A stretch of DNA of 64,000 nucleotides from NCBI GenBank assembly GCA_021799495.1, contig JAJZAI010000008.1:21389-85388 (forward strand). The letters are read 5' to 3'. Within the stretch, counting starts at the first letter, position 1, and each line of letters begins with the position of its first letter. A program made the translations under genes and the position numbers. Of this stretch, positions 10,784 to 28,269 are shown one piece after another. Origin of the DNA: Deltaproteobacteria bacterium (lineage in GTDB: Bacteria; Desulfobacterota; Binatia; Binatales; Binataceae). Under the pieces are notes generated by a model. That model was given only the letters and a program-made list of their open reading frames with translations, was not told where the DNA came from and searched no databases.

Positions 10784-11072
10784 GGCGGCCTCCTCTCACA
10801 CCGGCGAACAGCCGTCAGGCGCCTCGGCGCGCTCGATGCGAGAGGATGAGGGGGCGTTCAGGTCGAAGAATGAGGAGACGCGCGCTTGCGGCCGCCGCTT
10901 CGGCGGCTATCCTCATTTCTGATCTCCTATTAGGCCAATAGCGACGGCGCGGCAAGTCGCCGCCGGCCAGCTCAATCTCCCGACGGTTGGCGGGCGTTCG
11001 CGGAATGACGGATAAAGCGCCGCGTGGTGGAAGCAGACAGCGGTGAATCAAATCGGAAAGGAAATCGAGCGG

Positions 11073-12389
11073 ATGGCCGACTTCGCCGATGAAACGCCGG
11101 AAAAAGCGCAACCTTCCGGCCGCTCGCGCAGCGAAATCCGCGCGGCGCGAATCGCGGTGGATTATTTCGTAATCGCCACGATCTATCTGATTGCGGGAAT
11201 GGCGGCGCTGCCGTGGCTGACCACGCCGATGCTTGACTATTTTTACCAGCCGCGAATCCTCGCGCTGGTTCATACGTTCACGATCGGATGGATTACCGCC
11301 GCGATAATCGGCGTGCTTTACCGATACGCGCCCGCGCTCGGGCACAAACCGTTACCCTACCCGCGCCTGCTGGCGCCGCAATTGATTTTGTTCCTGATCG
11401 GTTCGAGCGGCGTGATCAGCCATTTTGCGCTCGGCTCATGGTCGGGCGTCTGGTCGGCGGCGATCGTGCTGATCGCAAGTTTGATCCTGTTCGCGGTCAA
11501 CATCGTGCCGTGCGTGTGGGCCGGCGTCGGACGCGGCATCGCGCAAACCGGCGTCGCCTTCGCGGTATCCTTCCTTCTTGCCGCCGCGACGCTGGGCTTT
11601 CTTCTGGCGCTCGACAAGTCCGTCGGAATCATCGGCGGCAATCTGCTCGACAATCTCGCGGCGCATGCGAACCTTGCGGCGATCGGCTGGATCGCAATTA
11701 CGGTGTGCGCGCTTTCCCAGCGGATGCTGCCGGCATTTATCGGAGCCATGGCGATCGATTTCGACCGCCGGCGATGGCTTGTTTATGCGCTCGGAGGTTC
11801 CGCGATCACGCTCGCCGCCGCGCTGCTTTTCGCGGGCCAAATAATCGTTATCGCGGCGGCGATCTTCGCGGCGTTGTCGATTGTCGTATTCGTAATGTCG
11901 ATTTTCGCGATGATCCCGGGGCGGCGTCCGATGCCGGGCTGGACAGCGCCGCATGTCGCCGCTGGCGCCGGCTGGGCGTTGCTGGCCGTCGCTTCAGGCT
12001 TGGCGTTGCTGGCGCTGGGAGGCGACAGCATGATCGGAGCGCACGTCGCCGTCGTATATGGCGCGGCCGGCCTGCTGGGATGGTTCGGCAATTTCATCAT
12101 CGGAATGTCGTACCATCTTTTTCCCGGCGCGGTCGCACATGTGCGATCTGCAAAAGGCTGGCCGTCCATGAAATTCGCGGAGATTGAATCGCCATCCGGC
12201 CGATGGATGATTTTTGCGGGCTACAACGCCGGGCTTGCCATCGTCAGCGCGAGCGCGCTTGCGTCACAAGCAGCGCTGGCTGAGATCGGCGCGGCCCTGA
12301 CGGCGCTCGGGACGGCAATCTATGCGCTAGCGACGCTTCGCGCGTTGAGCTTCGCGTATCGGCGCCAGCCGCCCGCTTTGCGGCCATAG
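11073..12389 (+). CDS. Uncharacterised ~12-TM membrane protein with three internal repeats (oxidase subunit I-like/NnrS-like architecture)
   Basis: Repeated units HTFTIGWITAAIIGVLYRYAP / HANLAAIGWIAITVCALSQRMLP / YGAAGLLGWFGNFIIGMSYHLFP. Start is ATG 11073 (AAGGA SD) or GTG 11043. Confidence 0.7.
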   Translation: MADFADETPEKAQPSGRSRSEIRAARIAVDYFVIATIYLIAGMAALPWLTTPMLDYFYQPRILALVHTFTIGWITAAIIGVLYRYAPALGHKPLPYPRLLAPQLILFLIGSSGVISHFALGSWSGVWSAAIVLIASLILFAVNIVPCVWAGVGRGIAQTGVAFAVSFLLAAATLGFLLALDKSVGIIGGNLLDNLAAHANLAAIGWIAITVCALSQRMLPAFIGAMAIDFDRRRWLVYALGGSAITLAAALLFAGQIIVIAAAIFAALSIVVFVMSIFAMIPGRRPMPGWTAPHVAAGAGWALLAVASGLALLALGGDSMIGAHVAVVYGAAGLLGWFGNFIIGMSYHLFPGAVAHVRSAKGWPSMKFAEIESPSGRWMIFAGYNAGLAIVSASALASQAALAEIGAALTALGTAIYALATLRALSFAYRRQPPALRP

Positions 12390-12491: not shown

Positions 12492-13304
12492 TTATACAGT
12501 CGCGCGCCCGTGCGGATGAAGCGGCCGGATTTGCGCGGGCCTGCGATTTATCGCGGGAATTTCAGTGTCTTCCCGCTGCGCCCAACGGAAGAAAATCCCG
12601 CTGAAAACGAACATGATATAGACGCCCTGGCCAACCCACATCACCAGTCCGCCAAGCACCTGATCCGCGCGCGGCGTGAGCCCCAGCGGATGCGGCCCCA
12701 TCGTGTAGTACATGTAGAGCACCGAATCCGCCATCGTAATCGGCGCGGCCACCGCGGTCATCGGAATCATCAACAGAAAGAGGTAGAGAATCTGCAACGG
12801 ATAGGAAAGCCGGGGAAATTCGGGCACGGGACTGACGATCGGCCACCACAGCAGCACGCCGACGATCAGCAGGCCCAATCTGATTCCGCCGAAGAACGAC
12901 TTAACGTGGCAGACCCGGTCGCATAGAGCCGGGTAATGCAACAGCGCGAAGAACATCGAGAACAACAGAAACGCGACCAGTGGGCGCGTGACGATGCGAA
13001 AGAACGGCTCAACAACCCGCCGCATGAGAATCGGGCGCAACATCCAATCCGGCGTTCCCAGAAGAATAAGGGGCGGGATGACAAACACCAGCATCATCTG
13101 TTGAAAGATGTACGCGGCGAAGAAAAAACCTTTCGCGGCCTGGTCGAGCGGCCCGGTAAGGGTTAACAAAAGCAGGATCACGGCGAAGCCGAACGCCAGT
13201 TCCTGGCGCTGGCGAGGACGCCTGCCCGCGACGTACGCCGCGCCGACATAAACCGCGGCGAACGCGATGATCGATACGATTACGTCAGGTTTCGCTTCCC
13301 ACAT
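12492..13304 (-). CDS. ctaG: caa3-type cytochrome c oxidase assembly protein (Caa3_CtaG family)
   Basis: Q-x-MLVFVIPPLILLGTPDW, LLWWPI and DQVLGGLVMW; last gene of the oxidase operon. Confidence 0.85.
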   Translation of the reverse strand: MWEAKPDVIVSIIAFAAVYVGAAYVAGRRPRQRQELAFGFAVILLLLTLTGPLDQAAKGFFFAAYIFQQMMLVFVIPPLILLGTPDWMLRPILMRRVVEPFFRIVTRPLVAFLLFSMFFALLHYPALCDRVCHVKSFFGGIRLGLLIVGVLLWWPIVSPVPEFPRLSYPLQILYLFLLMIPMTAVAAPITMADSVLYMYYTMGPHPLGLTPRADQVLGGLVMWVGQGVYIMFVFSGIFFRWAQREDTEIPAINRRPAQIRPLHPHGRATV

Positions 13305-13341: not shown

Positions 13342-13692
13342 CTAGGCTCTGATGATGAACATATGATGGCCCAGATATGCGAACAGCAGCATCAGCGACA
13401 TGCAAATCAGCACCGCCAGCATCAATGGAAAGACGAAGAAAATCGAAAAAACGGTGCTGTCGTACCATAGATGCATGTAAAACGACGCGACCAAAATGAA
13501 TTTGGCGATCGCGAGAACAATCAGGAGCGGCACCAGCACCGATTGCAGCGCGGCTGCATAAAAGACGCCGATTTCCATTGCGGTCAGAATACACAGCACC
13601 ACCGCCACCACAATGTAGACCATCGGGCCGGGATGCTCGTCATGCACGATCGCGTGCGCGTCGTGCGCGTGATCGATTGCGTGCTCGCTCAT
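13342..13692 (-). CDS. Cytochrome c oxidase subunit IV family protein
   Basis: Three TMs, LTAME and KFILVASFYMHL; overlaps the subunit I/III stop codon. Confidence 0.88.
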   Translation of the reverse strand: MSEHAIDHAHDAHAIVHDEHPGPMVYIVVAVVLCILTAMEIGVFYAAALQSVLVPLLIVLAIAKFILVASFYMHLWYDSTVFSIFFVFPLMLAVLICMSLMLLFAYLGHHMFIIRA

Positions 13693-16154
13693 GCGTGTTT
13701 AATCGTCCTCATCAAATAGATCAGGGTGAAGATGACAACCCACACGATATCCACGAAGTGCCAGTAAAGACCCGCGATTTCGACCGACAACGCGCGGCTC
13801 TTGCCGATTTTGCCGCGCGCCCCGGCGATCGCCATCGTGATCAGCCAGCATACGCCGATAAACACGTGGAAGCCGTGGAAGCCAACCAGCGTATAGAAAC
13901 ACTGGCTGAACAGGTTGCTGTTGTAGAGCATTCCACGCGCATAAAAGTCGTGGAATTCGAAGACCTGGCCACCCAGAAAGATGCACCCGAAGAAGGCCGT
14001 GCCGAACAGCCAGAAAGTTCCCCAGAACCGATCGCCGCGCTGATAGCCGGCGAGCGCCAGAACCATCAGCAAGCTCGACATCAGCAGGACGAACGTGCTG
14101 AATGAGGTCAGCGGAATGTTCAGTATCTGGGCGTCGGGATAGCCAATGCTCCGCGACTTATAAACCATGTAGGTTGAGATCAGGCTGGCGAAGAATACGC
14201 ATTCCGAACCGATAAAGGCCCAGATGCCGAGTTTGCGATTGTCCAACCCAAGGAAGCTCTCGCCGACCTGATGGGGATTGTCCTGGCCCCAGTCGATGTA
14301 CTCGAACGACATCGAGATCGCAGTGAAAGCAAGCAATCCAAGACCGCCGAACACCAGCCGATACCAGCCGACCAGCATGCCCACACCGGCGAGGAAGATG
14401 GCCCCGCCCATGACCAGCGGGTACAACGACGGCTCGGGCATATGGATCGCCGCGATTTCTTCGGCCGACGGCGGCGGCAGGTAATCCACGTTGAGGCGTT
14501 TTTCGCCGAGTCCCGAAGCCTCCACGTCGCCGTATTTTTCGACCCAGAAAGCGTCGCGCGAGTGAACCGCCGGCACGGTCACGAAGTTATAGACCGGCGG
14601 CGGCGACGGCGTCATCCATTCGAGCGTGCGCGCGTTCCATGGATCGGCGCTCGCGCGTTCGCCGTTGAACCAGCTATAGGCGACGTTGAAGAAGAAAATC
14701 AGGAAAGTCGCGCCCAGAAAAAACGCGCTTACGCTCTCGAAAAAGTTCCAGAAATCCCATCCCATTCCCGGCGCGTACGTGTAAATGCGGCGCGGCATTC
14801 CCAGTTCGCCCAGGAAATGCATCGGGAAGAAGGTGCAGTTGAAGAAAATCGTGGTCAGCCAGAAATGCCATTTGCCGAGCGTTTCGTTCATCATCCGGCC
14901 GCTGATTTTCGGGAACCAGTAGTAGAACGACGCCAGGATCGCCATCAGCACGCCGCCAAACAGCACGTAATGGAAATGCGCGATGATGATGTAGGAATCG
15001 GTCTGCTCCATATCGACCGGAGCGCTGGCGTGCATCACGCCGCTCAGGCCGCCGATCGTGAATTCAAGGATGAAGCCGAGCGCGAAAAGCATCGCGGTGG
15101 TGAACCGCAATCGCCCTCCCCACACCGTCGCGATCCATGAGAACACTTTCACGCCGGTCGGAATCGCGATCAGCATCGAGGTGATCGAAAACGCGCTGTC
15201 GGCGACCGGCCCCATTCCGGTCGCGAACATGTGATGGCCCCAGACGCCATAGGAGAGAAAGGCGATCAGGATGATCGAATAGGCCATCATCGGATAGCCG
15301 AACAGCGGCTTGCGCGAGAAAACCGGCAGTATTTCGGAAATCATGCCGAACGCCGGCAGGGCCATGATGTACACCTCGGGATGGCCGAAGATCCAGAACA
15401 GGTGCTGCCACAGGATTGGCGTCGCGCCGGCGATCACGCGATAGAAGTGCGTGTCGAAATAACGATCGGCGAAGAGAAAGATCAGGCCGACCGTCAGCGC
15501 GGGGAAGGCGAGCAGCAGCAAAATGACCGTCACCAGCAGCGCCCAGATGAACATCGGCATGCGCATGAAGGTCATGCCGGGCGCGCGCATGTTGACGATC
15601 GTGACGAAGAAATTCAGCGCGCTCATCACCGACGAAACGCCCAGGATGAGCAGGCCGACATCGTAGTAGTCGATATTCAATCCGGGCGAATAGTAAACTT
15701 CACTGAGGTTCGCATAACCGAACCATCCGCCGTTCGGCAGGCCGCCCCAGATCCATCCGAAGTTCAGCACCATAGCGCCAAGCAGGAAAATCCAGAAACT
15801 GAGCGCGTTGACCCGCGGAAACGCAACGTCCCGCGCGCCGATTTGCAGCGGGATGAGAAAGTTGCCGAAAAAGCCGGTCTCCAGCGGCATGACGACGAGA
15901 AAGATCATCGTCAAGCCGTGCATCGTGAAAATCTGATTGTAGAAATCCGCGGTGAGGAAATGATTGTCCGGAACAATAAGCTGCGCCCGGATCAGCATCG
16001 CCTCGATTCCGCCGAGTCCCATCAGCAACAGCGCCGTGACGCCGTACATCACGGCGATGCGTTTGTGGTCGATGGTGGTGAGCCATCCGTAGATGCCGCC
16101 GCCCTCAAGATAGCTCGCCTGCTCGAGATGTAATGGTTTTGGTTGCGCCGCCAT
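13689..16154 (-). CDS. ctaD: Cytochrome c oxidase subunit I fused to subunit III (A1-type heme-copper oxidase)
   Basis: DHKRI, TMHG, AFPRVN, WIFGHPEVY, VWGHHMF, AHFHYV and GMPRR, followed in frame by COX3 motifs FIGSE, GFHGFHV and YWHFVDIVW; 821 aa. Confidence 0.96.
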   Translation of the reverse strand: MAAQPKPLHLEQASYLEGGGIYGWLTTIDHKRIAVMYGVTALLLMGLGGIEAMLIRAQLIVPDNHFLTADFYNQIFTMHGLTMIFLVVMPLETGFFGNFLIPLQIGARDVAFPRVNALSFWIFLLGAMVLNFGWIWGGLPNGGWFGYANLSEVYYSPGLNIDYYDVGLLILGVSSVMSALNFFVTIVNMRAPGMTFMRMPMFIWALLVTVILLLLAFPALTVGLIFLFADRYFDTHFYRVIAGATPILWQHLFWIFGHPEVYIMALPAFGMISEILPVFSRKPLFGYPMMAYSIILIAFLSYGVWGHHMFATGMGPVADSAFSITSMLIAIPTGVKVFSWIATVWGGRLRFTTAMLFALGFILEFTIGGLSGVMHASAPVDMEQTDSYIIIAHFHYVLFGGVLMAILASFYYWFPKISGRMMNETLGKWHFWLTTIFFNCTFFPMHFLGELGMPRRIYTYAPGMGWDFWNFFESVSAFFLGATFLIFFFNVAYSWFNGERASADPWNARTLEWMTPSPPPVYNFVTVPAVHSRDAFWVEKYGDVEASGLGEKRLNVDYLPPPSAEEIAAIHMPEPSLYPLVMGGAIFLAGVGMLVGWYRLVFGGLGLLAFTAISMSFEYIDWGQDNPHQVGESFLGLDNRKLGIWAFIGSECVFFASLISTYMVYKSRSIGYPDAQILNIPLTSFSTFVLLMSSLLMVLALAGYQRGDRFWGTFWLFGTAFFGCIFLGGQVFEFHDFYARGMLYNSNLFSQCFYTLVGFHGFHVFIGVCWLITMAIAGARGKIGKSRALSVEIAGLYWHFVDIVWVVIFTLIYLMRTIKHA

Positions 16155-16165
16155 TTGAAAATTCC

Positions 16166-17215
16166 CTATTTAAGGCTCTCGAGATACGCGACCAGATCGG
16201 TCAGTTGTTGCCCCTGCACGCCCAGCGTCGGCATATGCGCCCCCGGCTTAACCTTGTCGGGATTCTCGATCCACATAGCCACGTTAGCCGGCGTGTTGTC
16301 CATGATGCTACCGGCAAAAGTCGTTCGGCTGCCGAAATGAGTCAGATCGGGACCGCGGAATCCGAACGCATACTGTTTCGAGAATCCGGAGACTCCCTTG
16401 ATCGTGTGGCAAATCGCGCACGGCGCGTTCGCCCACTCTTTGGCGCCGGCGGCCGCGTCTCCGCCCGCGGGCCTGACCGGTCCATCGAGCTGATGCGCGG
16501 TCCATTGCTTGAACTGCTCGGGCGTATCGACGAACAGACGGAACCGCATGTTCGCATGCGAGGTGCCGCAATACTCGGTGCACTGCCCGTAGTACTCGCC
16601 CGGCTTGTCCGCGGTGAGCGTAATCTGATTGACCTGGCCGGGCACGACGTCGCGCTTGCCGCCGATCGCGGGCATGAAAAAGCTATGGATTACGTCGTCC
16701 GAAACCATCGAGAAATGAATCACCTGGCCTTCGGGAATATGCACTTCGTCGGCGGTGTCGACGCCGCTGGACGGATAGCGGAATTCCCACCACCACTGAT
16801 GCGCTATGACGCGGACTTCGAGCGCGTTCGCGGGCCACTTGTCAGGCTGGGTTTTGATAATGGTGTTAACCGTCGGCACCGTGATCGCGACCAGAATCAG
16901 CGCCGGAATCACCGTCCAGAGCATTTCCAGCGTCACGTCCGAGTGCATCGCCGACGGCTCGCCGGGATCGCCCTCGCGGCTGGAATAAATAAAAATCGCG
17001 CCGATCATCGCGGCGATCACAACGACCAGCACGATCGCGTCAAGAATCGTGATCTCTTTGAACAGCGAGGTGAACGCGCGCGTCAAATCCGATTGCGGCG
17101 ACAGCGTGTCCATCGGATACGGACCGCCGCCGCATCCCGACAACACGGCTCCGCACAGCGCCGCGACGACGCCCGAAAGCCCCACTCGCGCGCGATCGAA
17201 CAGGTTCGGCCTCAT
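16166..17215 (-). CDS. ctaC: Cytochrome c oxidase subunit II with C-terminal cytochrome c (caa3 type), lipoprotein
   Basis: LSGC lipobox, QWWWEFRY, DVIHSF, CuA motif CTEYCGTSHANM, CAICH heme c and KPGAHMP. Start 17215 overlaps the actF stop. Confidence 0.95.
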   Translation of the reverse strand: MRPNLFDRARVGLSGVVAALCGAVLSGCGGGPYPMDTLSPQSDLTRAFTSLFKEITILDAIVLVVVIAAMIGAIFIYSSREGDPGEPSAMHSDVTLEMLWTVIPALILVAITVPTVNTIIKTQPDKWPANALEVRVIAHQWWWEFRYPSSGVDTADEVHIPEGQVIHFSMVSDDVIHSFFMPAIGGKRDVVPGQVNQITLTADKPGEYYGQCTEYCGTSHANMRFRLFVDTPEQFKQWTAHQLDGPVRPAGGDAAAGAKEWANAPCAICHTIKGVSGFSKQYAFGFRGPDLTHFGSRTTFAGSIMDNTPANVAMWIENPDKVKPGAHMPTLGVQGQQLTDLVAYLESLK

Positions 17216-18426
17216 CGCCCGCCTCCCGTCGCGTCCGCGGCCGCCACGTTGGCCAAAAGCTTCAGCCCGGGCGTCGCGCACAGTAGAAAGGCTCCGAGAA
17301 ATCCGGCCGTAACGCATAGTTCAACCCATCCGAGCGGCAGCTTGTTCGGCGATAGCGAGGGAACCACCAGGATATAATTCAGGTCCCACACGCCAACTAA
17401 CCCTAGCAAAGCCACCGTACCAAGAATCGCGGGCGTCTTCTTCGGCTTGACGCCCAGCAAAGTGAAGAACGGAACAACCCATATCAGCAGCGGAGCCAGC
17501 CACGTCATGAACATCCACGGATGATGCCAGCAGCGCGCGATGATGAAGAAAGTCTCGGAAGGAAGATCGCCGTACCATATGACGATGTATTGAGCGAAAG
17601 TCAGATACATCCAGAAGATCGAAAAGGCGAAGATCATCTTGCCGAGGTCGTGGCGCACCTTTCCGCGATCGAATGTGTTGCCCGACGGCAGCGCCTTGCG
17701 CATCCGCACCGCCGTGAACGCCATCGCCACGATATTCGACCAGAAGACCGTCGCGAAGTACCACCATCCAAACAGCGTGCTGTGCCAGCGCGGCGACAGC
17801 GACGAGATCAGGTCGAACGCGAACAGCGTCCATACCACGGCGAACAGGATGCCGACGGTGGGCGCCAGCCGCCGGATCGCTTTCGGCGGCATCTCGATCG
17901 TTTCCGGCCGGCCGTGCCAATCCTCCGCCGCGCGCGAACGCGACGCGGCGACGAACCACGACGCCACCAGCACGATTATCGCGAGCGCCAGATAGTCGCG
18001 CGCGAAGAAGAACGGCACGTTCAACCACATCGCCTGCCTGGGATTCGGATGGGCAATCCACGGAAATATCTGGTTGCGCCCGATAAAAACTCCCAGAAAC
18101 AGGACAAATGCCAGCGGCAGAAAGCGCCACCATGCTTCGGCCATTCGATATTGCACGGTTCCCGCCCAGCGCGCCTGCGTCAGATAGAACGCCGCCGAGC
18201 ACACTACGCCGCCTTCGGCGATGCCGGTGAAGTACAGCCAGTTGACCAGCCAGCTCGACCAGACGCGTTGCGCGTGGCCGCTGGCCAGCCCGAACACGAC
18301 GCCGATCACGCCGAGCGCCACCAGAAGGAATGAAATCGAAGTAAGGCGGCCCCAGTTCAGCCGGACCGGCTCATGAATCGGCCGAATCGCCGCGGCCCCC
18401 AACGATGCAGGTTGCTTAGCGCTCAT
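17212..18426 (-). CDS. actF: Alternative complex III subunit F (NrfD-like membrane subunit)
   Basis: WLNVPFFFAR, DLISSLSPRWHSTLFG, HDLGKMIFAFSIFWMYLTFAQYIVIWYGDLPSET. Confidence 0.9.
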   Translation of the reverse strand: MSAKQPASLGAAAIRPIHEPVRLNWGRLTSISFLLVALGVIGVVFGLASGHAQRVWSSWLVNWLYFTGIAEGGVVCSAAFYLTQARWAGTVQYRMAEAWWRFLPLAFVLFLGVFIGRNQIFPWIAHPNPRQAMWLNVPFFFARDYLALAIIVLVASWFVAASRSRAAEDWHGRPETIEMPPKAIRRLAPTVGILFAVVWTLFAFDLISSLSPRWHSTLFGWWYFATVFWSNIVAMAFTAVRMRKALPSGNTFDRGKVRHDLGKMIFAFSIFWMYLTFAQYIVIWYGDLPSETFFIIARCWHHPWMFMTWLAPLLIWVVPFFTLLGVKPKKTPAILGTVALLGLVGVWDLNYILVVPSLSPNKLPLGWVELCVTAGFLGAFLLCATPGLKLLANVAAADATGGGR

Positions 18427-18462: not shown

Positions 18463-18987
18463 TCAAGCGGCCGCCCGCGCGACTTCCTCGGCTCCCGCGT
18501 CGCGCAGCATCGCTTCGACCCGGGACACGTCGCCGTCGCCGACCCGCGCCACCAGGCCGAACTTGTCGGCGCCGAACCGGGTCCGATAGCCGGGCGCCGG
18601 CTCGAAGGCCGGAAGGCGGCTGATGAAAAAGAAGCTCGACACCGCGCTCAGCACGCCAAACAGGATCATCAGCTCAAAGATGATGACGATATAGGGCGCG
18701 ATCGCCGCGATTGGACGTCCGCCGGCGATAATGTTCCATTCCCACGACGTTCCGACCGTCAGAATCAAGCCGGTGAACGCCCCGGTGAAACCTCCGGCGA
18801 GCACGAATTTCCGCACCGGGCTGCGGCCCCATCCGCGCACTTCGTCGACCGCTTCATTGATCTTCTCGCTCATAAAGGGCGAAAAAACGTTGAAGTCGTG
18901 GACGTGCGCCTTGTGCAGTCCTTCGATCGCCGCGGCGCATTCGTCTTCGCTCGTAAACGTGCCAATCAGTTCGATTTCGCCGTTCAT
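18463..18987 (-). CDS. actD: Alternative complex III subunit D (DUF3341)
   Basis: FSPF, two TMs, IAGGRP and IFELMILF. Start 18987 overlaps the actC stop. Confidence 0.85.
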   Translation of the reverse strand: MNGEIELIGTFTSEDECAAAIEGLHKAHVHDFNVFSPFMSEKINEAVDEVRGWGRSPVRKFVLAGGFTGAFTGLILTVGTSWEWNIIAGGRPIAAIAPYIVIIFELMILFGVLSAVSSFFFISRLPAFEPAPGYRTRFGADKFGLVARVGDGDVSRVEAMLRDAGAEEVARAAA

Positions 18988-20351
18988 GCCGCTTTCCGAT
19001 ATGGGTATGGCTCGCGTATCGATTTGCGCAGCCAGGTTATTCCTTCCTTCAGCTCGGTCATCGAGACGATGGGAAGGAATTTCGTGAACAACGAGAAATT
19101 CAGCAGGAACCAGCCGAAGCTGCCGATCGTGATCGCCACTTCCGTGATCTTCGGCACATAGAACCGCCACTGCGACGGCGTCTGCGCGGTCGACAGCGAG
19201 CCGGCGATCAGCACGAAGCGCTCAAGCCACATCCCGATATTCACGAATATCGAGATGATGAAGAGCCAGACCATGTTCGTGCGTATCCGCGGCGAGAACA
19301 GCAGCAGCGGCACGAGACAGTTGCATAGAATCATCCCGCCGAACAGATAGCCTTGCGATCCGAAGAAACGCTCATGGAACGTCATCATTTCGATCGGATC
19401 CTGCGCATACCAGACGACGAAAACTTCGGTCAGGTACGAGTAGGAAATGACCAGCGACGTGAACAACACCACTTTTGAAAGGTTGTCCATGTGCCAGACC
19501 GTCACCAGGTCCTCGATATGCAGCCACTTGCGCATCGGCACCATCAGCGTGATCACCAGCGCGCAGCCGGAGAAAATCGCGCCGGCGACGAAATAGGGAG
19601 CGAAAATCGTGCTGTGCATGCCCGGCGTCTGCATCGTCGCGAAGTCCCAGGAAACGACGCTGTGGACCGACAGCACCAGCGGCGTCGCGAAACCCGCAAG
19701 CAGCAGATACGCCATCGAGAAGTTACGCCACTGCCGATCCGTTCCCTGCCATCCGCAAGCCAGAATCGTGTAGAACTTCTTGCGCCATCCGGTGGAAATA
19801 TCGCGCTGGTTGGCGATATCCGGAATCAGCCCCATCGACAGGAACAGCGCGCTGGTGGTCAGGTAGGTGCTGATCGCGAAAAAGTCCCAGGTCAGCGGCG
19901 AGCGGAAATTGGGCTGCAAGTAGCGCTCGTTGGGATACGGGCACAGCCAGTAGAAATACCACGGCCGCCCGAGATGGATAATCGGGAAGAGGCCGGCGGT
20001 CACGACCGCGAAGATCGTCATCGTCTCCGCGCAGCGGTAAACCGCCGTGCGCCAGCGCGTGCGGAACAGATACAGCACCGCCGAGATCAGCGTTCCCGAA
20101 TGCGCGATACCGACCCAGAACACGAAGTTCGTGATATAGACCGCCCAGTAGTTCGGCTGGCCGTAACCGGTCACGCCCAAACCTTCGTAAATCTGGCGCG
20201 TCCAGTAACTGACGCCGACTGCAACGAGAAACGCCAGAAACGCCACCCATAGCCAGTACTTGAGGCCGGCGGGATTCATCACCCGCTGGGCCGTGCGATC
20301 GACGTCGATATAGTTTATCGGGAATTCACCCTGTCCGACGGCGGCTGCCAT
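18984..20351 (-). CDS. actC: Alternative complex III quinol-oxidising subunit C (NrfD/PsrC family)
   Basis: YITNFVFWVGIAHSGTLISA, IHLGRPW, NFRSPLTWDFFAISTY, LVLSVHSVVSWDF and HSTIFAPYFVAGAIFSG. Confidence 0.95.
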   Translation of the reverse strand: MAAAVGQGEFPINYIDVDRTAQRVMNPAGLKYWLWVAFLAFLVAVGVSYWTRQIYEGLGVTGYGQPNYWAVYITNFVFWVGIAHSGTLISAVLYLFRTRWRTAVYRCAETMTIFAVVTAGLFPIIHLGRPWYFYWLCPYPNERYLQPNFRSPLTWDFFAISTYLTTSALFLSMGLIPDIANQRDISTGWRKKFYTILACGWQGTDRQWRNFSMAYLLLAGFATPLVLSVHSVVSWDFATMQTPGMHSTIFAPYFVAGAIFSGCALVITLMVPMRKWLHIEDLVTVWHMDNLSKVVLFTSLVISYSYLTEVFVVWYAQDPIEMMTFHERFFGSQGYLFGGMILCNCLVPLLLFSPRIRTNMVWLFIISIFVNIGMWLERFVLIAGSLSTAQTPSQWRFYVPKITEVAITIGSFGWFLLNFSLFTKFLPIVSMTELKEGITWLRKSIREPYPYRKAA

Positions 20352-23312
20352 TTAGGCTTTCCCCTTCTCCTGATAAAGATCGCGCAGATAGGTGACGGCG
20401 GGCAGCGCGTTGTAACCGGGCAGCATCGTATAGGTGCGGCCCTTGCCATCGTCGCGCCGCTTCATCATCGCGCTCTTCGGATCGTTGATATCGCCAAAAG
20501 TGATCGCACGCGCCGGACACGCCTGCGCGCACGCCGGGATGATCTCGCCGTCCATCACCGCGCGGTTTTCGGTGCGCGCGTTGATTTCCGCCGAGGTGAT
20601 CCGCTGGATGCAGAACGTGCACTTCTCCATCACGCCCGCGCCGCGCACGGTCACGTCGGGGTTGAGTTGCAGGTTGAGCGGCTCGGGAAATTCGGGATCG
20701 TACCAATTGAAGCGCCGAACCTTGTAAGGACAGTTGTTCTCGCAAAAGCGCGTGCCGATACAACGGTTGTAGATCTGCGCGTTGAGGCCTTCGCGCGTGT
20801 GACTCGACGCGAACACCGGACAGACCGGCTCGCACGGCGCATGGTCGCACTGCTGGCACATCACCGGCGCGATTTGCAGCAGCGGTCCGCGCCCAGCTTC
20901 TTCGAGCGTCGGTATATAACGTTCGACGCGAATCCACGACATGATGCGGCCGAGATTGACGTTGTCCGCGCCCACTACCTGGATATTGTTCTCGGCGTAG
21001 CACGCGACCACGCAGGCGCTGCATCCGTTGCAGGAATTGACGTCGACCGTCATACCCCACTTGTGGCCGGGATAGGCGATCGGCGGATACATCTCGTAGG
21101 GCTGATCGACCGGCTCCTCGCCATATTGCGGTTCGATCCCGCGGACGAGGTCTTCCACGCTCATCGACTCGATTATCGCGCGGCCCATCATGTCGCTCTT
21201 GCCGAGCGGCGTGATGAGTTTATGGGTCTTGTCGGTCTTTTTGACGCTGACCGCGATACTGCGCAGGCCCTCCGGAAGAAAAGCGAACGGATTTACGCCG
21301 ATTCCTTTGGCGTACCGGCCGTAAGCCGTATGGCCCTGGCCGAAGGGCACGGCAATCACGCCCGGACGCACCAGGCGCGAAATGTTAACGCTCAATTCGA
21401 CCGGCCCGTTCGGCGTGGAAATCTCGATTACGTGCAATCCGGCGAACAGGCGCGTCTGCTCGTAATTCTCTTCGATTCCGAGCTGCGAAGCGGTATCCGG
21501 ATGGACCTCGGCCCAGCTATCCCAAACGATTTGGCTGACGGGCTCGGGCGTCTCCTGCAGCCAGGATTTGTTCGCTCCGCGTCCGTCGTAGAGGAAAGCG
21601 TGCGGAAACGCCCAGAGCATCAGCCCGGCCGGAACCGGCGGAAGCTGGGAGGTTTGCTGCCATACCGTCGGGACGATTTTGACGTCGGCAGGCTTCGCTT
21701 CGGTGAAGACGCCGCCGGTCCGGCGCGCGTTATCCCAGAATTCCCTGGGCGTTCCGCTCGCGCCGATTTTGCTCTGAAGTTGCGCCCATGACGCGCTGAC
21801 CGCATCAGCGGCGTTCTCAAACGGAATCGCCTGACCCGCCGCTCCTGCGGCCAGATGCGCCGATTCGATCAGCATGTCGTGGACTGCGCGGCTGGCGAAC
21901 ACCGGCTGCATCACCGGCTGCCCAAGACCGTAGATTCCGGCGCGCGGAGCTGTATCGCGCCAGCTTTCGAGCGCGTGATGGGCGGGCAGGAGCAAATTCG
22001 CCACTTCCGCCGATTCGTCCGGCACTTCGCCCATCCATACGACCAGCCCGACCCGCTTGGCCGCATCTCTGAAGGCATACCCCGGCGACATCGAATAGGC
22101 CGGATTTCCGCCCGCGAGTACCAGCACGTCGACCTGACCGTCGCGCATCGCGTCGATAACCGCTTTTAGCTGCTCGGGCCGGCTGTTCGCTTCGGGCGGC
22201 GTTTCGGCAAGAAAAACCATCGTTTTGCCGAGATTGCCGGTCACGGCGTTGAGCAGGTACGCCGCGAGATGAGCCTGCTGACTGGCGCCGTCCGCCAGCG
22301 CCACAGCGCCATCGGTCGCCTGGCCGAACCAAGACGCAATCCGCTGAATCGTCTGCGCGGGCACTCCGGTTTGAGCGCTAATCTTTTCAGGGTCGTAGTC
22401 GGCTACGAAAGCCTTTACCGCCGACACATCGACACCCGAATTCGACGCAACCCAGCCTTGATTCACGACGACGTTCAGCACCGCCATCGCGATTGCGCCT
22501 TCGCTGCCCGGATTCGCCGCCACCCATTCGTCGGCCTTGGCCGCGCTGGTGTTCATCCGCGGCCCGACGTAGGCGTAGTGTCCAATGCTGAGCTTGCCGT
22601 TGCGCTGCTTTGGCGCCCGGAAGGTCGCAAATTGACGCCCGAACTCGACCGGGGAATTCCACGTGCCGAGGAAATCCGCGTCGAAAGAGATGATCGTTTC
22701 GGCCTGATCGATACGGTAGATCGGCAGGTCGCGCTTGCCGAAGCAGGCCTCGGCGGCTTTGCGCGCCGGCTCGTCGCTGAACGCCTCCCAGAACCCGACG
22801 CGGTCGGAACCGAAGGCCTTGGCCCAAGCCACCGTAATCGCATCGAGCGTCGGTCCCATCGACGCGCCGACAAACGCGACCCGGCCAGCCCCCGCCTTGC
22901 CGGCGGCCGCGAGCTTGTCATTAAACTCCCGATTCGCCTCGTCCCACGAGATTGCGGCCACCGAGCCGTCCGGCTTGCGCCGCATCGGCTTGGCCAGCCG
23001 ATCGGGATTATAAAGTCCCTGCAACGCCGACTGGCCGCGCGCGCAGATCGCGCCGCCGCTGATCGGATCGGCGGGATTGCCTTCGAGCTTGATTACCCGC
23101 CCTTCCATCACGCGCGCCACGATTCCGCATCCGGCGGAGCATTCGCTGCAGGTGGTGGCGAAAAAGGTTGGTTCGCCCGGCACGATATTTTCGTCCGGCA
23201 CGACGTATGGAATCAGCTTTCTGGCGGCCGGTTCGCATCCCGGTATCGCCGCCGCGGCCGACGCCGTGGCAGCTAATTTCAGGAACGACCGCCTCGACAG
23301 CCCGTCTGACAT
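20352..23312 (-). CDS. actB: Alternative complex III subunit B (molybdopterin-oxidoreductase-like domain plus Fe-S domain), Tat-exported lipoprotein
   Basis: SRRSFLK twin-arginine and IPGC lipobox; N-terminal CSECSAGC...ICARG; C-terminal CNGCSACVVAC, CQQCDHAPCEPVCP, CIGTRFCENNCP and CTFC...CAQACP; GAGGA SD. Confidence 0.93.
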   Translation of the reverse strand: MSDGLSRRSFLKLAATASAAAAIPGCEPAARKLIPYVVPDENIVPGEPTFFATTCSECSAGCGIVARVMEGRVIKLEGNPADPISGGAICARGQSALQGLYNPDRLAKPMRRKPDGSVAAISWDEANREFNDKLAAAGKAGAGRVAFVGASMGPTLDAITVAWAKAFGSDRVGFWEAFSDEPARKAAEACFGKRDLPIYRIDQAETIISFDADFLGTWNSPVEFGRQFATFRAPKQRNGKLSIGHYAYVGPRMNTSAAKADEWVAANPGSEGAIAMAVLNVVVNQGWVASNSGVDVSAVKAFVADYDPEKISAQTGVPAQTIQRIASWFGQATDGAVALADGASQQAHLAAYLLNAVTGNLGKTMVFLAETPPEANSRPEQLKAVIDAMRDGQVDVLVLAGGNPAYSMSPGYAFRDAAKRVGLVVWMGEVPDESAEVANLLLPAHHALESWRDTAPRAGIYGLGQPVMQPVFASRAVHDMLIESAHLAAGAAGQAIPFENAADAVSASWAQLQSKIGASGTPREFWDNARRTGGVFTEAKPADVKIVPTVWQQTSQLPPVPAGLMLWAFPHAFLYDGRGANKSWLQETPEPVSQIVWDSWAEVHPDTASQLGIEENYEQTRLFAGLHVIEISTPNGPVELSVNISRLVRPGVIAVPFGQGHTAYGRYAKGIGVNPFAFLPEGLRSIAVSVKKTDKTHKLITPLGKSDMMGRAIIESMSVEDLVRGIEPQYGEEPVDQPYEMYPPIAYPGHKWGMTVDVNSCNGCSACVVACYAENNIQVVGADNVNLGRIMSWIRVERYIPTLEEAGRGPLLQIAPVMCQQCDHAPCEPVCPVFASSHTREGLNAQIYNRCIGTRFCENNCPYKVRRFNWYDPEFPEPLNLQLNPDVTVRGAGVMEKCTFCIQRITSAEINARTENRAVMDGEIIPACAQACPARAITFGDINDPKSAMMKRRDDGKGRTYTMLPGYNALPAVTYLRDLYQEKGKA

Positions 23313-23326
23313 TTCGTTTCCTCGCC

Positions 23327-23842
23327 TCAGTGGTGGCAGACAAAACATTCTTGCGTGGCGCCGCGCTGTTCGTGGCAATTCACGCAGAATCCCATGTTGA
23401 TTTCTTTCACCGGGACGATCCGGTCCATCGTCTCGACGGGCCCGTGACACTCCTGGCACTGCACGCCGGCCCAAATATGGGGCTTATGCACGAAGCGAAC
23501 GAAATCCGGCAGGGTGTAAACCCGGTTCCAGCGAATTTCGAAGGGCGGCTGCTGGCCGTCGGTCCACGGCTGGGTCACCGGCTTGATGCCGCCCAGCAGG
23601 CCGCTGCCGTGGCATCCCACGCAGCGTTCGACCGGCGGCACGCCGGCATTGGCCGAGCGCCGCGCATATTCGTGGCAGTACTGGCACGGGATCTTATTGA
23701 TTCCGGCGTGCACGCGATGGCTGAACGGAATCGGTTGTTCGACATCCGAGCGCGGAGCCCACGGCCGCTCGGAAACCGCAACCGTGTACACGCCGACCAC
23801 GAACAGGAGCACGGCGACAGAGATCAGTATTCGATTCACCAT
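23327..23842 (-). CDS. actA: Alternative complex III pentaheme cytochrome c subunit A
   Basis: N-terminal TM, QPIPFSHRVH, five CxxCH motifs (CQYCH, CVGCH, CQECH, CVNCH, CFVCH) and W-x-RVY-x-LPDFV. Confidence 0.93.
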   Translation of the reverse strand: MVNRILISVAVLLFVVGVYTVAVSERPWAPRSDVEQPIPFSHRVHAGINKIPCQYCHEYARRSANAGVPPVERCVGCHGSGLLGGIKPVTQPWTDGQQPPFEIRWNRVYTLPDFVRFVHKPHIWAGVQCQECHGPVETMDRIVPVKEINMGFCVNCHEQRGATQECFVCHH

Positions 23843-26690: not shown

Positions 26691-27719
26691 ATGACCCCGG
26701 CGCGACGAACGGTGAAAAAGAGCGAAACGTTTTCATACGGCCACGCGACGCTAACGCTGGCTGATTGCCTCGAATGGCTCGCCGACCGAGCGCCCTTAAG
26801 CGTTCAGGCGGTGGTCACGGATCCGCCCTATGGTCTGGTCGAATACAGCCCTCAAGAACAGGCCAAACTGCGCGCCGGCCGCGGCGGCGTCTGGCGGATT
26901 CCACCCTCGTTCGACGGCCACAATCGGTCGCCCTTGCCGCGCTTCACCACTTTGACGGCTGAAGACCTGCGGCGGCTGGAACAATTTTTCGCGCGATGGG
27001 CGTCGAGCTTGATGCGGGTCCTGGTTCCGGGCGCGCATATTGTGGTCGCGAGCAACCCGCTGGTCTCGCATATTCTCGCCCGGCCGCTGGCCGAGGCCGG
27101 CTTTGAGCGGCGCGGCGAAATTATCCGGCTGGTAACTACGCTGCGCGGCGGCGATCGGCCAAAGAACGCGCATCAGGAATTCAGCGATGTGACGGTGATG
27201 CCGCGGTCGATGTTCGAGCCCTGGCTGCTGTTCCGCAAGCCGCTCGAGGGCCGGGTTCAGGACAACTTGCGCAAATGGCGCACCGGAGCGCTCCGGCGGA
27301 TTTCGCGCAACCAGCCGTTCGGCGACGTAATCGCGTCGCATCCGACGCGGCCGGCCGAACGCGCCTTGGCGCCGCATCCCAGTCTCAAACCGCAAACATT
27401 CATGCGCCAGATTGTGCGCGCGGTCCTGCCATTCGGCGAGGGCGTAGTGCTCGATCCGTTCGCGGGAGCGGGTTCGATGCTGGCGGCGGCCAACGCGCTC
27501 GGCTACGCCAGCATCGGCGTCGAGTACGACCCGCATTATTTCGAGATCGCGCGCGCAGCTATTCCAGCCTTGTCGCGCCTGACGAGCCGCGGTACACCCA
27601 TTGCTGACGAAGCATCTTTATTCCCTCGCGATGGAGAGTCGCCGTCCGCGTCCCCAATTCGCCGCGAGGATTCTTGCGAAAATCGGTTGTTCGCACTTGC
27701 GCCAGATAGACCGCGCTGA
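26691..27719 (+). CDS. N4-cytosine/N6-adenine DNA methyltransferase, beta class
   Basis: Catalytic TDPPY near the N-terminus; HPSLKP and LDPFAGAGS (motif I) near the C-terminus. Confidence 0.92.
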   Translation: MTPARRTVKKSETFSYGHATLTLADCLEWLADRAPLSVQAVVTDPPYGLVEYSPQEQAKLRAGRGGVWRIPPSFDGHNRSPLPRFTTLTAEDLRRLEQFFARWASSLMRVLVPGAHIVVASNPLVSHILARPLAEAGFERRGEIIRLVTTLRGGDRPKNAHQEFSDVTVMPRSMFEPWLLFRKPLEGRVQDNLRKWRTGALRRISRNQPFGDVIASHPTRPAERALAPHPSLKPQTFMRQIVRAVLPFGEGVVLDPFAGAGSMLAAANALGYASIGVEYDPHYFEIARAAIPALSRLTSRGTPIADEASLFPRDGESPSASPIRREDSCENRLFALAPDRPR

Positions 27720-28188
27720 AGTTTAACGGACGACGATCCACCGCCGGCTCGGTGGCGTTGTCAATTTCATACACGAAAACGCATAGCCACTGATCGCGTG
27801 CGCCATGCATATCAACGGCGGCGCTTGCGTTCTTCGTGGTCTTGATTTCGATCCCATCCTCGCCAGCCTTGATCGCATCGCCGGTATAACGCCCACGGAC
27901 AATCAAATCCGGATGTCCGTTCGGCCATCGGTTCTCGGTCAAAGCACGCGAATGTCGCGCGACGCTCGCGCATAGAAAATCCGACAGCAATCCGGAGAGC
28001 GTGGCCTTGCGCTTCTCGAGAATATCCTCCAAACGGCCGAGGCCTTTTTCCAGCAGCGTTCCATTCACATCGTGAAAGAAGTCGTAAACGTCCTGCATCG
28101 CAAGCGCGAAATCAGCAAGACGCAATTCATATGGGAGGGACAATGACTCGTTGAATACGCCTTCAACTTTGTTTCGACGCGCGGGCAT
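27559..28188 (-). CDS. Putative type II restriction endonuclease (PD-(D/E)xK-like), convergent with the MTase
   Basis: GHPDLIV...GIEIKT motif, visibly lower-GC codon usage, and adjacency to the MTase; TTGAGT-N17-TAAAAA promoter-like motif at 28197-28225. Confidence 0.62.
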   Translation of the reverse strand: MPARRNKVEGVFNESLSLPYELRLADFALAMQDVYDFFHDVNGTLLEKGLGRLEDILEKRKATLSGLLSDFLCASVARHSRALTENRWPNGHPDLIVRGRYTGDAIKAGEDGIEIKTTKNASAAVDMHGARDQWLCVFVYEIDNATEPAVDRRPLNFSAVYLAQVRTTDFRKNPRGELGTRTATLHREGIKMLRQQWVYRGSSGATRLE

Positions 28189-28269
28189 CGGCAAGATTTT
28201 TATCCGGGTTCGGCAAACTACTCAATCAGACACTGATCTCGTGTCCGCTGCCATAGCCGAACGCTCAAC

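Follow-up and report, generated by a model that had tools for sequence, protein, structure and literature searches.

Among the closest described relatives of the system studied here are the alternative complexes III (ACIIIs) of known structure. In their ActB subunit a domain with the molybdoenzyme fold (B1) is fused to an iron-sulfur domain (B2), and B1 is reported to be without a cofactor (Sousa 2018, PMC5928083; Shi 2020, PMC7439408). What ActB's three [4Fe-4S] clusters do is left unsettled in these two structure papers, where the side branch of the complex is described as a dead end or an electron sink; Psr has the corresponding chain of five clusters as its main electron path (PMC7439408). 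Wells 2023 and Duarte 2018 treat both ActB and the related QrcB as proteins without a molybdenum cofactor (Moco), the latter using the term "cofactor-less". ACIII has also been reported for all Binatota genomes (PMC8262859). Here we analyse an act operon from a bacterium of the family Binataceae, located in a window of 64,000 nucleotides (the whole stretch that was analysed; contig JAJZAI010000008.1, positions 21,389 to 85,388), whose actB gene carries in B1 the four cysteines of FS0, a [4Fe-4S] site of molybdenum enzymes. With a probability of roughly 0.58, we propose that the operon encodes an ACIII coupled to a caa3 oxidase, that its ActB holds FS0 and no molybdenum cofactor, and that FS0 is a remnant that stabilises the protein and extends the electron sink.

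The B1 domain of ActB carries an FS0 motif

The 986-residue open frame on the minus strand starts with MSDGLSRRSFLKLAATASAAAAIPGC, a twin-arginine translocation (Tat) signal with Cys26 in lipobox position. The first-pass annotation of the window had noticed this signal and, behind it, the pattern TTCSECSAGC, 27 residues and CARG; translation confirms both and places the cysteines at C55, C58, C62 and C90. Its assignment of the pattern to FS0 also holds, since the Pfam model PF04879 (Molybdop_Fe4S4) matches residues 50-102 with 47.3 bits (E 2e-12), and because this is far above the gathering cut-off of 22.7 bits the pattern is not a product of chance. It had also stated that B1 of the solved ACIIIs carries no cofactor; the four distinct solved ActB sequences, those of Rhodothermus (6f0k), Roseiflexus (6lod), Chloroflexus (8k9e) and Flavobacterium (6btm), align in this region and have no Cys at any of the four places. 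The ligand set of B2 comprises three four-Cys groups and one three-Cys group, and its 15 Cys are invariant in all 121 close sequences, that is, the query and the best 120 of 1989 homologues (57-99% identity). Cys26, which would be lipidated, is kept in 120 of them.

An AlphaFold model of ActB, built on a 77-row alignment, reached a pLDDT of 92.1 and a pTM of 0.93, with pLDDT values of 92-98 over the FS0 motif. Its best structural matches were the solved ActB chains (Z 34.7-40.7, TM 0.83-0.85), ahead of ArrA (Z 34.4, with 622 residues superposed at 2.8 A) and then PsrA (Z 32.0).

The motif is common among ActB and QrcB proteins

Among close homologues the motif is nearly always intact: the four Cys, with the spacing of 27, are present in 120 of the 121 close sequences, the sole miss being an N-terminally truncated protein that retains C90. 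By comparison, only 65/121 retain Cys190, which lies in the same domain. Further out, the best 150 representatives of the nearest 50%-identity clusters included 137 that cover the region, and these divide into 99 with an intact motif, 29 with no Cys, six with one and three with three. In 30 named GTDB loci, which include records from Burkholderiaceae, Chromatiaceae and Thalassospiraceae, 27 had the motif, two were without the N-terminus and one showed an ambiguous residue at the fourth Cys. ActB was matched at E<=1e-60 in 65 of the 301 genomes of the own phylum; leaving out four genomes with N-terminally incomplete matches, 64 loci from 61 genomes were counted, 60 with the motif (seven of these in Qrc-like operons) and four without. 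Within the QrcB family, where 22 of 29 loci passed a full-length filter, 20 of the 22 proteins keep the motif; the two that score highest on the QrcB model no longer have it in full.

These samples were drawn by nearness to a motif-bearing query and so lean towards the motif, and the figures are not a census. For the phylum of genome G301, searched with a query that omitted the motif region, 70 of the 75 listed places gave 20 with the motif, 47 without it and three without the N-terminus (20/67); one of the 47 has the Cys set with a long insert. Possible states of decay or ligand swap were noted at P0260, P0192, L101:1414-3555 and L155 (one C-C-H-C, two x-C-C-C and one complete set whose fourth Cys comes after a long insert).

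The rarity assumed at first pass did not survive these counts: several groups have the motif commonly in their ActB and QrcB, an outcome that the first-pass annotation had itself named as cancelling the novelty, and the same CX2CX3CX27C pattern was printed by Kato et al. 2015 (PMC4643136) for ActB1 of neutrophilic iron oxidisers. A literature search, with the main ACIII and Qrc surveys outside its reach, found no statement on the spread or ancestry of FS0. An FS0-bearing ActB is a common, already published variant, of which this gene is an ordinary member.

The four cysteines are retained or lost together

Over 317 rows of ActB1 and QrcB sequences, the four positions held four Cys in 226, three in three, two in none, one in seven and no Cys in 74, with a gap or X in seven. 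Independent loss would be expected to leave about 68 rows with two Cys and about 131 with three, a contrast that is inflated to some extent by the relatedness of the sequences. In the sequences compared, the four Cys are thus kept or lost as a set, and glycine follows the fourth Cys in 184 of 185 motif-bearing rows. Because the set behaves as a unit, a fifth cluster is likely, as had been suggested at the outset, and we consider it very probable that ActB binds a further [4Fe-4S] cluster through C55, C58, C62 and C90. Insertion of FS0 into NarG takes place in the absence of Moco (PMC10609526).

Two trees, both made without the motif's own columns and rooted on Psr/Arr-like proteins, were used to count changes of the FS0 state. 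There were 18 changes on a FastTree phylogeny of 267 rows, a few being artefacts of truncated or ambiguous rows, and 10 on an IQ-TREE phylogeny of 60 hand-picked rows, seven of them forced by starred branches. Under the Psr-like root the motif is present in the Arr-like proteins, in most Qrc and in the deep lineages of split ActB1, so that repeated loss is the simple reading; trees alone cannot separate gain from loss, and a regain of four Cys at the same spacing would be unlikely. Retention of FS0 is, therefore, likely to be the ancestral state.

The FS0-less ActB of locus L065 scores 1089, 1053 and 871 bits against three solved ActBs, to which the query ActB scores 443, 465 and 471 bits; 6btm is distant from both (489 bits for L065, 375 bits for the query). 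Since the scores of L065 are twice those of the query, the three structures sample a loss lineage. The solved structures under-represent five-cluster ACIIIs.

Proposed role of FS0 in the complex

If the complex works as the solved ACIIIs do, quinol would be oxidised at ActC, and electrons would pass from there to the [3Fe-4S] cluster, the five hemes of ActA (with ActE), the cytochrome c domain borne by subunit II of the caa3 oxidase and finally O2. FS0 would sit at the far end of the [4Fe-4S] side branch, off this main path. It would be left over from a Psr/Arr-like ancestor after loss of the molybdenum cofactor, and would have been retained for stabilising the N-terminal domain and for adding one centre to the electron sink. 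Its dispensability would explain why many lineages, including the structurally solved ones, have lost all four Cys together.

In another reading, FS0 is a working second port, and the side branch trades electrons with a soluble periplasmic partner or feeds reverse flow into the quinone pool, giving the complex two periplasmic wires. The chain of Psr is a precedent for such a path, the ActB model superposes well on both ArrA and PsrA, and the motif is kept in iron-oxidiser ActB1 (PMC4643136) and in most QrcB-family proteins. An external carrier for the side branch was raised by Sousa 2018 (PMC5928083), Qrc connects periplasmic donors to menaquinone reduction (PMC6303296), and reverse flow has been proposed for iron oxidisers (PMC4643136). 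However, the site has been lost repeatedly without an obvious change of the operon, the best scorers for the QrcB model are among those that lost it, and no partner gene accompanies the motif in the loci examined. The FS0-less loci L065, L067, L069 and L071, from the same class, also precede caa3-type oxidase genes. We favour the stabilising remnant because these relatives without FS0 are followed by the same type of oxidase and because no partner gene follows the motif, and see in it a counterpart of cluster N7 of complex I; the port seems doubtful to us, although it deserves some weight. Rather doubtful, too, is a wider proposal that combines an ancestral and widespread five-cluster form of ACIII and Qrc, and an FS0-loss lineage as the source of every solved ActB, with an FS0 that in the retaining lineages completes the branch as a working second wire to a periplasmic partner. 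If all of this were true, the textbook cofactor-free B1 would be derived, and the unexplained clusters FeS2-4 would be what is left of such a wire.

Four-Cys sites can bind zinc, and the four residues might form in vivo a structural site without iron and sulfur (zinc, or periplasmic disulfides), which would leave ActB with the usual four clusters only. The ActB of F. johnsoniae was modelled with one [4Fe-4S] cluster, versus three elsewhere (PMC7439408); occupancy can fall below the number of motifs. Against a structural site, the spacing and flanks stay FS0-like (with PF04879 above its cut-off and the glycine after the fourth Cys nearly invariant), the comparison contained no row with just two Cys, which disulfide pairs would permit, and ActB would be exported by Tat with its other clusters already loaded. 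This explanation is therefore judged unlikely.

ActB is likely to hold no molybdenum cofactor

The molybdenum-ligand Cys of Arr-like and Psr-like proteins, found in 12/12 Psr-like proteins, aligns with Ser179 of ActB. Ser179 was considered as a ligand and rejected, because the column varies freely: it reads N33 G30 S26 A18 T6 D5 among the 121 close sequences and S59 A31 N28 G19 D13 Q12 among the 185 motif-bearing rows, in which only two have any Cys within 174-183. In our reading of the alignment, the molybdenum-free 6btm likewise has Ser at the ligand position. With the ligand Cys replaced in this way, the residual catalysis that had been envisaged at first pass finds no backing. Several of the positions that 17 catalytic Psr/Arr-like outgroup proteins conserve are changed in ActB, whether or not it bears the motif. 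Among residues conserved in at least 88% of the 17, the Asp at query position 250 occurs in 0% of the 185 motif rows, the Asp at 271 in 1% and the His at 175 in 4%; residues at these positions are taken to contact the cofactor. No chaperone of the TorD/NarJ family (PF02613) was found in the own genome, which is 98% complete. The presence of moaC in 283 of the 301 genomes of the own phylum makes the Moco pathway a weak test; no match to moaC, moaA-C or moeA was found in the FS0-bearing G167 (100% complete), G227 (99%) and G304. Taken together, ActB is likely to hold no molybdenum cofactor.

Several observations weigh against this or other parts of our proposal. The own genome does carry moaC. 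Since other molybdoenzyme genes are present in G227, its missing moa genes may be unassembled, and two of the five FS0-bearing genomes negative for moaC (G036 and G083) do have moeA and moaA-C. Outside the motif, the likeness of B1 to catalytic Psr/Arr proteins has a median of 101 bits in FS0-bearing proteins (n=197) versus 37 bits in FS0-less ones (n=89), with 287 bits for Qrc-like proteins (n=27) and 115 bits for the query. A basic residue after the fourth Cys is also kept more often with FS0 (R/K in 142/185 versus R in 15/43). The catalytic-like sequence of FS0-bearing B1 fits a slower decay of the fold, and the "intermediate" position between complex iron-sulfur molybdoenzymes (CISM) or Qrc and ACIII, claimed at first pass, stands in the loose sense that FS0-bearing B1 is nearer to the catalytic proteins. 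The strict conservation seen between lineages of about 33-45% identity might just as well reflect an active redox role. Finally, the literature search, within the reach given above, found no metal measurement on any FS0-bearing ActB.

That B1 is still an enzyme with a molybdenum or tungsten bis-pyranopterin guanine dinucleotide (bis-PGD) cofactor, with Ser179 as ligand and small-substrate redox chemistry at the end of the five-cluster chain, is highly improbable: this protein does have Ser there, families coordinating through Ser exist (PMC10100899), moaC is present and the protein of the iron oxidisers has been named a molybdopterin oxidoreductase and suggested to be an iron oxidase, but the Ser is held by only 26/121 close sequences, the Asp and His columns are replaced, the chaperone was not found, some genomes with FS0-bearing genes yielded no Moco genes, and QrcB of the D. 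vulgaris type and solved ActB are without molybdenum (PMC6303296, PMC5928083, PMC7439408).

Operon and genome context

The features of the locus are listed in Table 1. On the minus strand, the genes follow the order actABCDF-coxII-coxI/III-IV-ctaG, with actA, B, C, D and F of ACIII present in one cluster. In the PDB, ActA is matched best by the ActA chains of the four solved complexes, with E values from 7e-29 to 2e-24, and H126, D156 and D236 of ActC align with H139, D169 and D253 of R. marinus, so that the quinol site is conserved; the roles of these His/Asp/Asp residues in R. marinus ActC have been described (PMC5928083). The best reading of the operon is an ACIII followed by a caa3 oxidase, which would function together as a quinol oxidase. 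No cytochrome b (PF00033) was found in the own genome at its 98% completeness. Close relatives carry the source label Candidatus Binataceae.

Table 1. Predicted genes and sites of the act-caa3 locus (positions in the window).
Feature	Position	Strand	Description and evidence
actA	23327..23842	-	cytochrome c with five hemes (5 CxxCH), 171 aa; membrane helix at the N-terminus
actB	20352..23312	-	B1 (molybdoenzyme fold) fused to B2 (Fe-S), 986 aa
Tat signal SRRSFLK and lipobox-like Cys26	23235..23312	-	sequence; PF10518 18.8 bits, below the 22.7 cut-off
FS0 motif C55-x2-C58-x3-C62-x27-C90, predicted [4Fe-4S] site	23043..23150	-	sequence, PF04879, model
Ser179, at the PsrA/ArrA Mo-ligand Cys position, not conserved	22776..22778	-	alignments
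B2 cluster ligands C761-C932, three [4Fe-4S] and one [3Fe-4S] (predicted)	20517..21032	-	layout as in solved ActB
actC	18984..20351	-	NrfD-family quinol-site subunit
actD	18463..18996	-	PF11821, 126 bits
actF	17212..18426	-	without Pfam match; best PDB match 6f0k_F, E 4e-28
caa3-type oxidase subunit II, C-terminal cytochrome c domain	16166..17317	-	COX2, COX2_TM, Cytochrom_C; TIGR02866 above cut-off
oxidase subunit I fused to III	13689..16154	-	COX1 and COX3; TIGR02891 above cut-off
oxidase subunit IV	13342..13692	-	PF03626
caa3 assembly factor CtaG	12492..13304	-	PF09678, 151 bits

The operon has no actE, nor do those of the 11 nearest loci whose flanks were long enough (L002-L011 and L014), and L017 is alike; the FS0-bearing L012, L013 and others retain actE within the operon. 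A search of the own genome with a profile built from 18 operonic ActE proteins found an ActE-like gene on another contig (G000:C83:4677-5480) with 156 bits, the next match scoring 76, and its product may well join the complex. This gene (L177:4677-5480) stands alone between a major facilitator superfamily transporter gene and an outer-membrane efflux gene. In two relatives of this family actE also lies away from the act operon, on a separate contig (G174:C26 and G291:C26); in G234, neither an actB match nor an ActE-like gene was found. FS0 as a substitute for a missing ActE was rejected, given the ActE-like genes elsewhere in the own genome, G174 and G291 and the operonic actE of the FS0-bearing L012 and L013. 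The ActE proteins encoded beside FS0-bearing ActB (L012, L013, L016, L019-L029, L072, L074, L095, L096 and L099) mostly have a mature start of small residue-x-PW and no lipobox Cys, and the ActE beside the FS0-less L069 has a lipobox Cys; the FS0-bearing type may be accompanied by a soluble ActE.

Other arrangements were seen in the wider set. In L061-L063, L068, L080, L091, L093, L097, L098 and L100, a rearranged ACIII-like operon of the order B(FS0)-C-D-F is followed by an ActA-like gene with four CxxCH, then by a cytochrome with two hemes and often by a further one with a single heme; the stretch examined contains no oxidase genes. Some Qrc-like A-B1-B2-C operons (L084, L085 and L088), or an ACIII operon (L066 and L081), all of them FS0-bearing, have oxidase genes (cox1, cox3, cox2) directly upstream. 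The actB of L091 (G289:C14:208000-223881) is read as three consecutive open frames, through frameshifts or assembly errors.

Elsewhere in the window, a very hydrophobic protein of 448 amino acids with no Pfam match is encoded at 11043-12389 (+), and its gene converges on the oxidase operon at the latter's end. At 26691-27719 (+), a gene for an N6/N4 DNA methylase is convergent with an open reading frame of 211 codons without Pfam match at 27559-28194 (-), and the two are possibly a restriction-modification pair.

Significance

This gene by itself adds little, being one of hundreds, with close relatives derived from metagenomes and with its motif already published for iron oxidisers in culture. 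The value that is left lies in the picture at family level, in which the solved structures under-represent five-cluster ACIIIs. Many ACIIIs keep the predicted next cluster of the chain, which has been lost repeatedly as a unit, and this points to which complexes to purify. FS0-bearing and FS0-less ACIIIs provide a natural experiment on the side branch, and the label "cofactor-less" for ActB1 and QrcB needs qualifying.

Comparison with known systems

The actAB1B2CDEF operons of the iron oxidisers Ferriphaselus, Sideroxydans, Gallionella and Mariprofundus (PMC4643136) have the same B1 motif and the same core genes. They differ in having B1 and B2 as separate genes and actE within the operon, whereas here B is fused, actE lies elsewhere and a caa3 operon follows. 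The split proteobacterial B1 proteins are 30-33% identical to the query over B1 and branch apart from it. QrcABCD (NF041783; PMC6303296) shares a molybdenum-free, molybdoenzyme-like B subunit, a multiheme cytochrome and an NrfD-type anchor; in contrast to the query operon, with its fused B, actD and actF, Qrc has split B and C, is without ActD and ActF, and works in the opposite direction. The query ActB scores 253 bits on NF041783, against a cut-off of 440, and is placed in the Act clade of the trees.

With PsrA/PhsA and ArrA, which are CISM proteins with molybdenum-bis-PGD, the query ActB shares the fold (Z 32-34), the FS0 motif and Tat export, but it is without the molybdenum-ligand Cys, its cofactor-side motifs are replaced, and it reaches only 146 of 694 and 118 of 1600 bits against the family cut-offs. 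Cluster N7 of complex I (Nqo3/NuoG) is likewise an iron-sulfur cluster of some bacteria only, held in a molybdenum-free molybdoenzyme fold, and presumably occupies the FS0 site. Work by Pohl in 2007 is reported to have found N7 essential for stability and not for electron transfer. N7 lies far off the main chain, whereas FS0 of ActB would adjoin the last B2 cluster, as in PsrAB, and could stay wired; N7 has been called a probable evolutionary vestige (PMC10212512).

The solved ACIIIs (6F0K, 6LOD, 8K9E and 6BTM) are the best matches both in sequence (ActB 375-471 bits) and in structure, and share with this operon the fused ActB, the pentaheme ActA, the quinol residues of ActC, ActD, ActF and the adjoining oxidase genes. 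They are without all four FS0 Cys, whereas the query ActB has them and thus falls outside the subtype with a cofactor-free B1.

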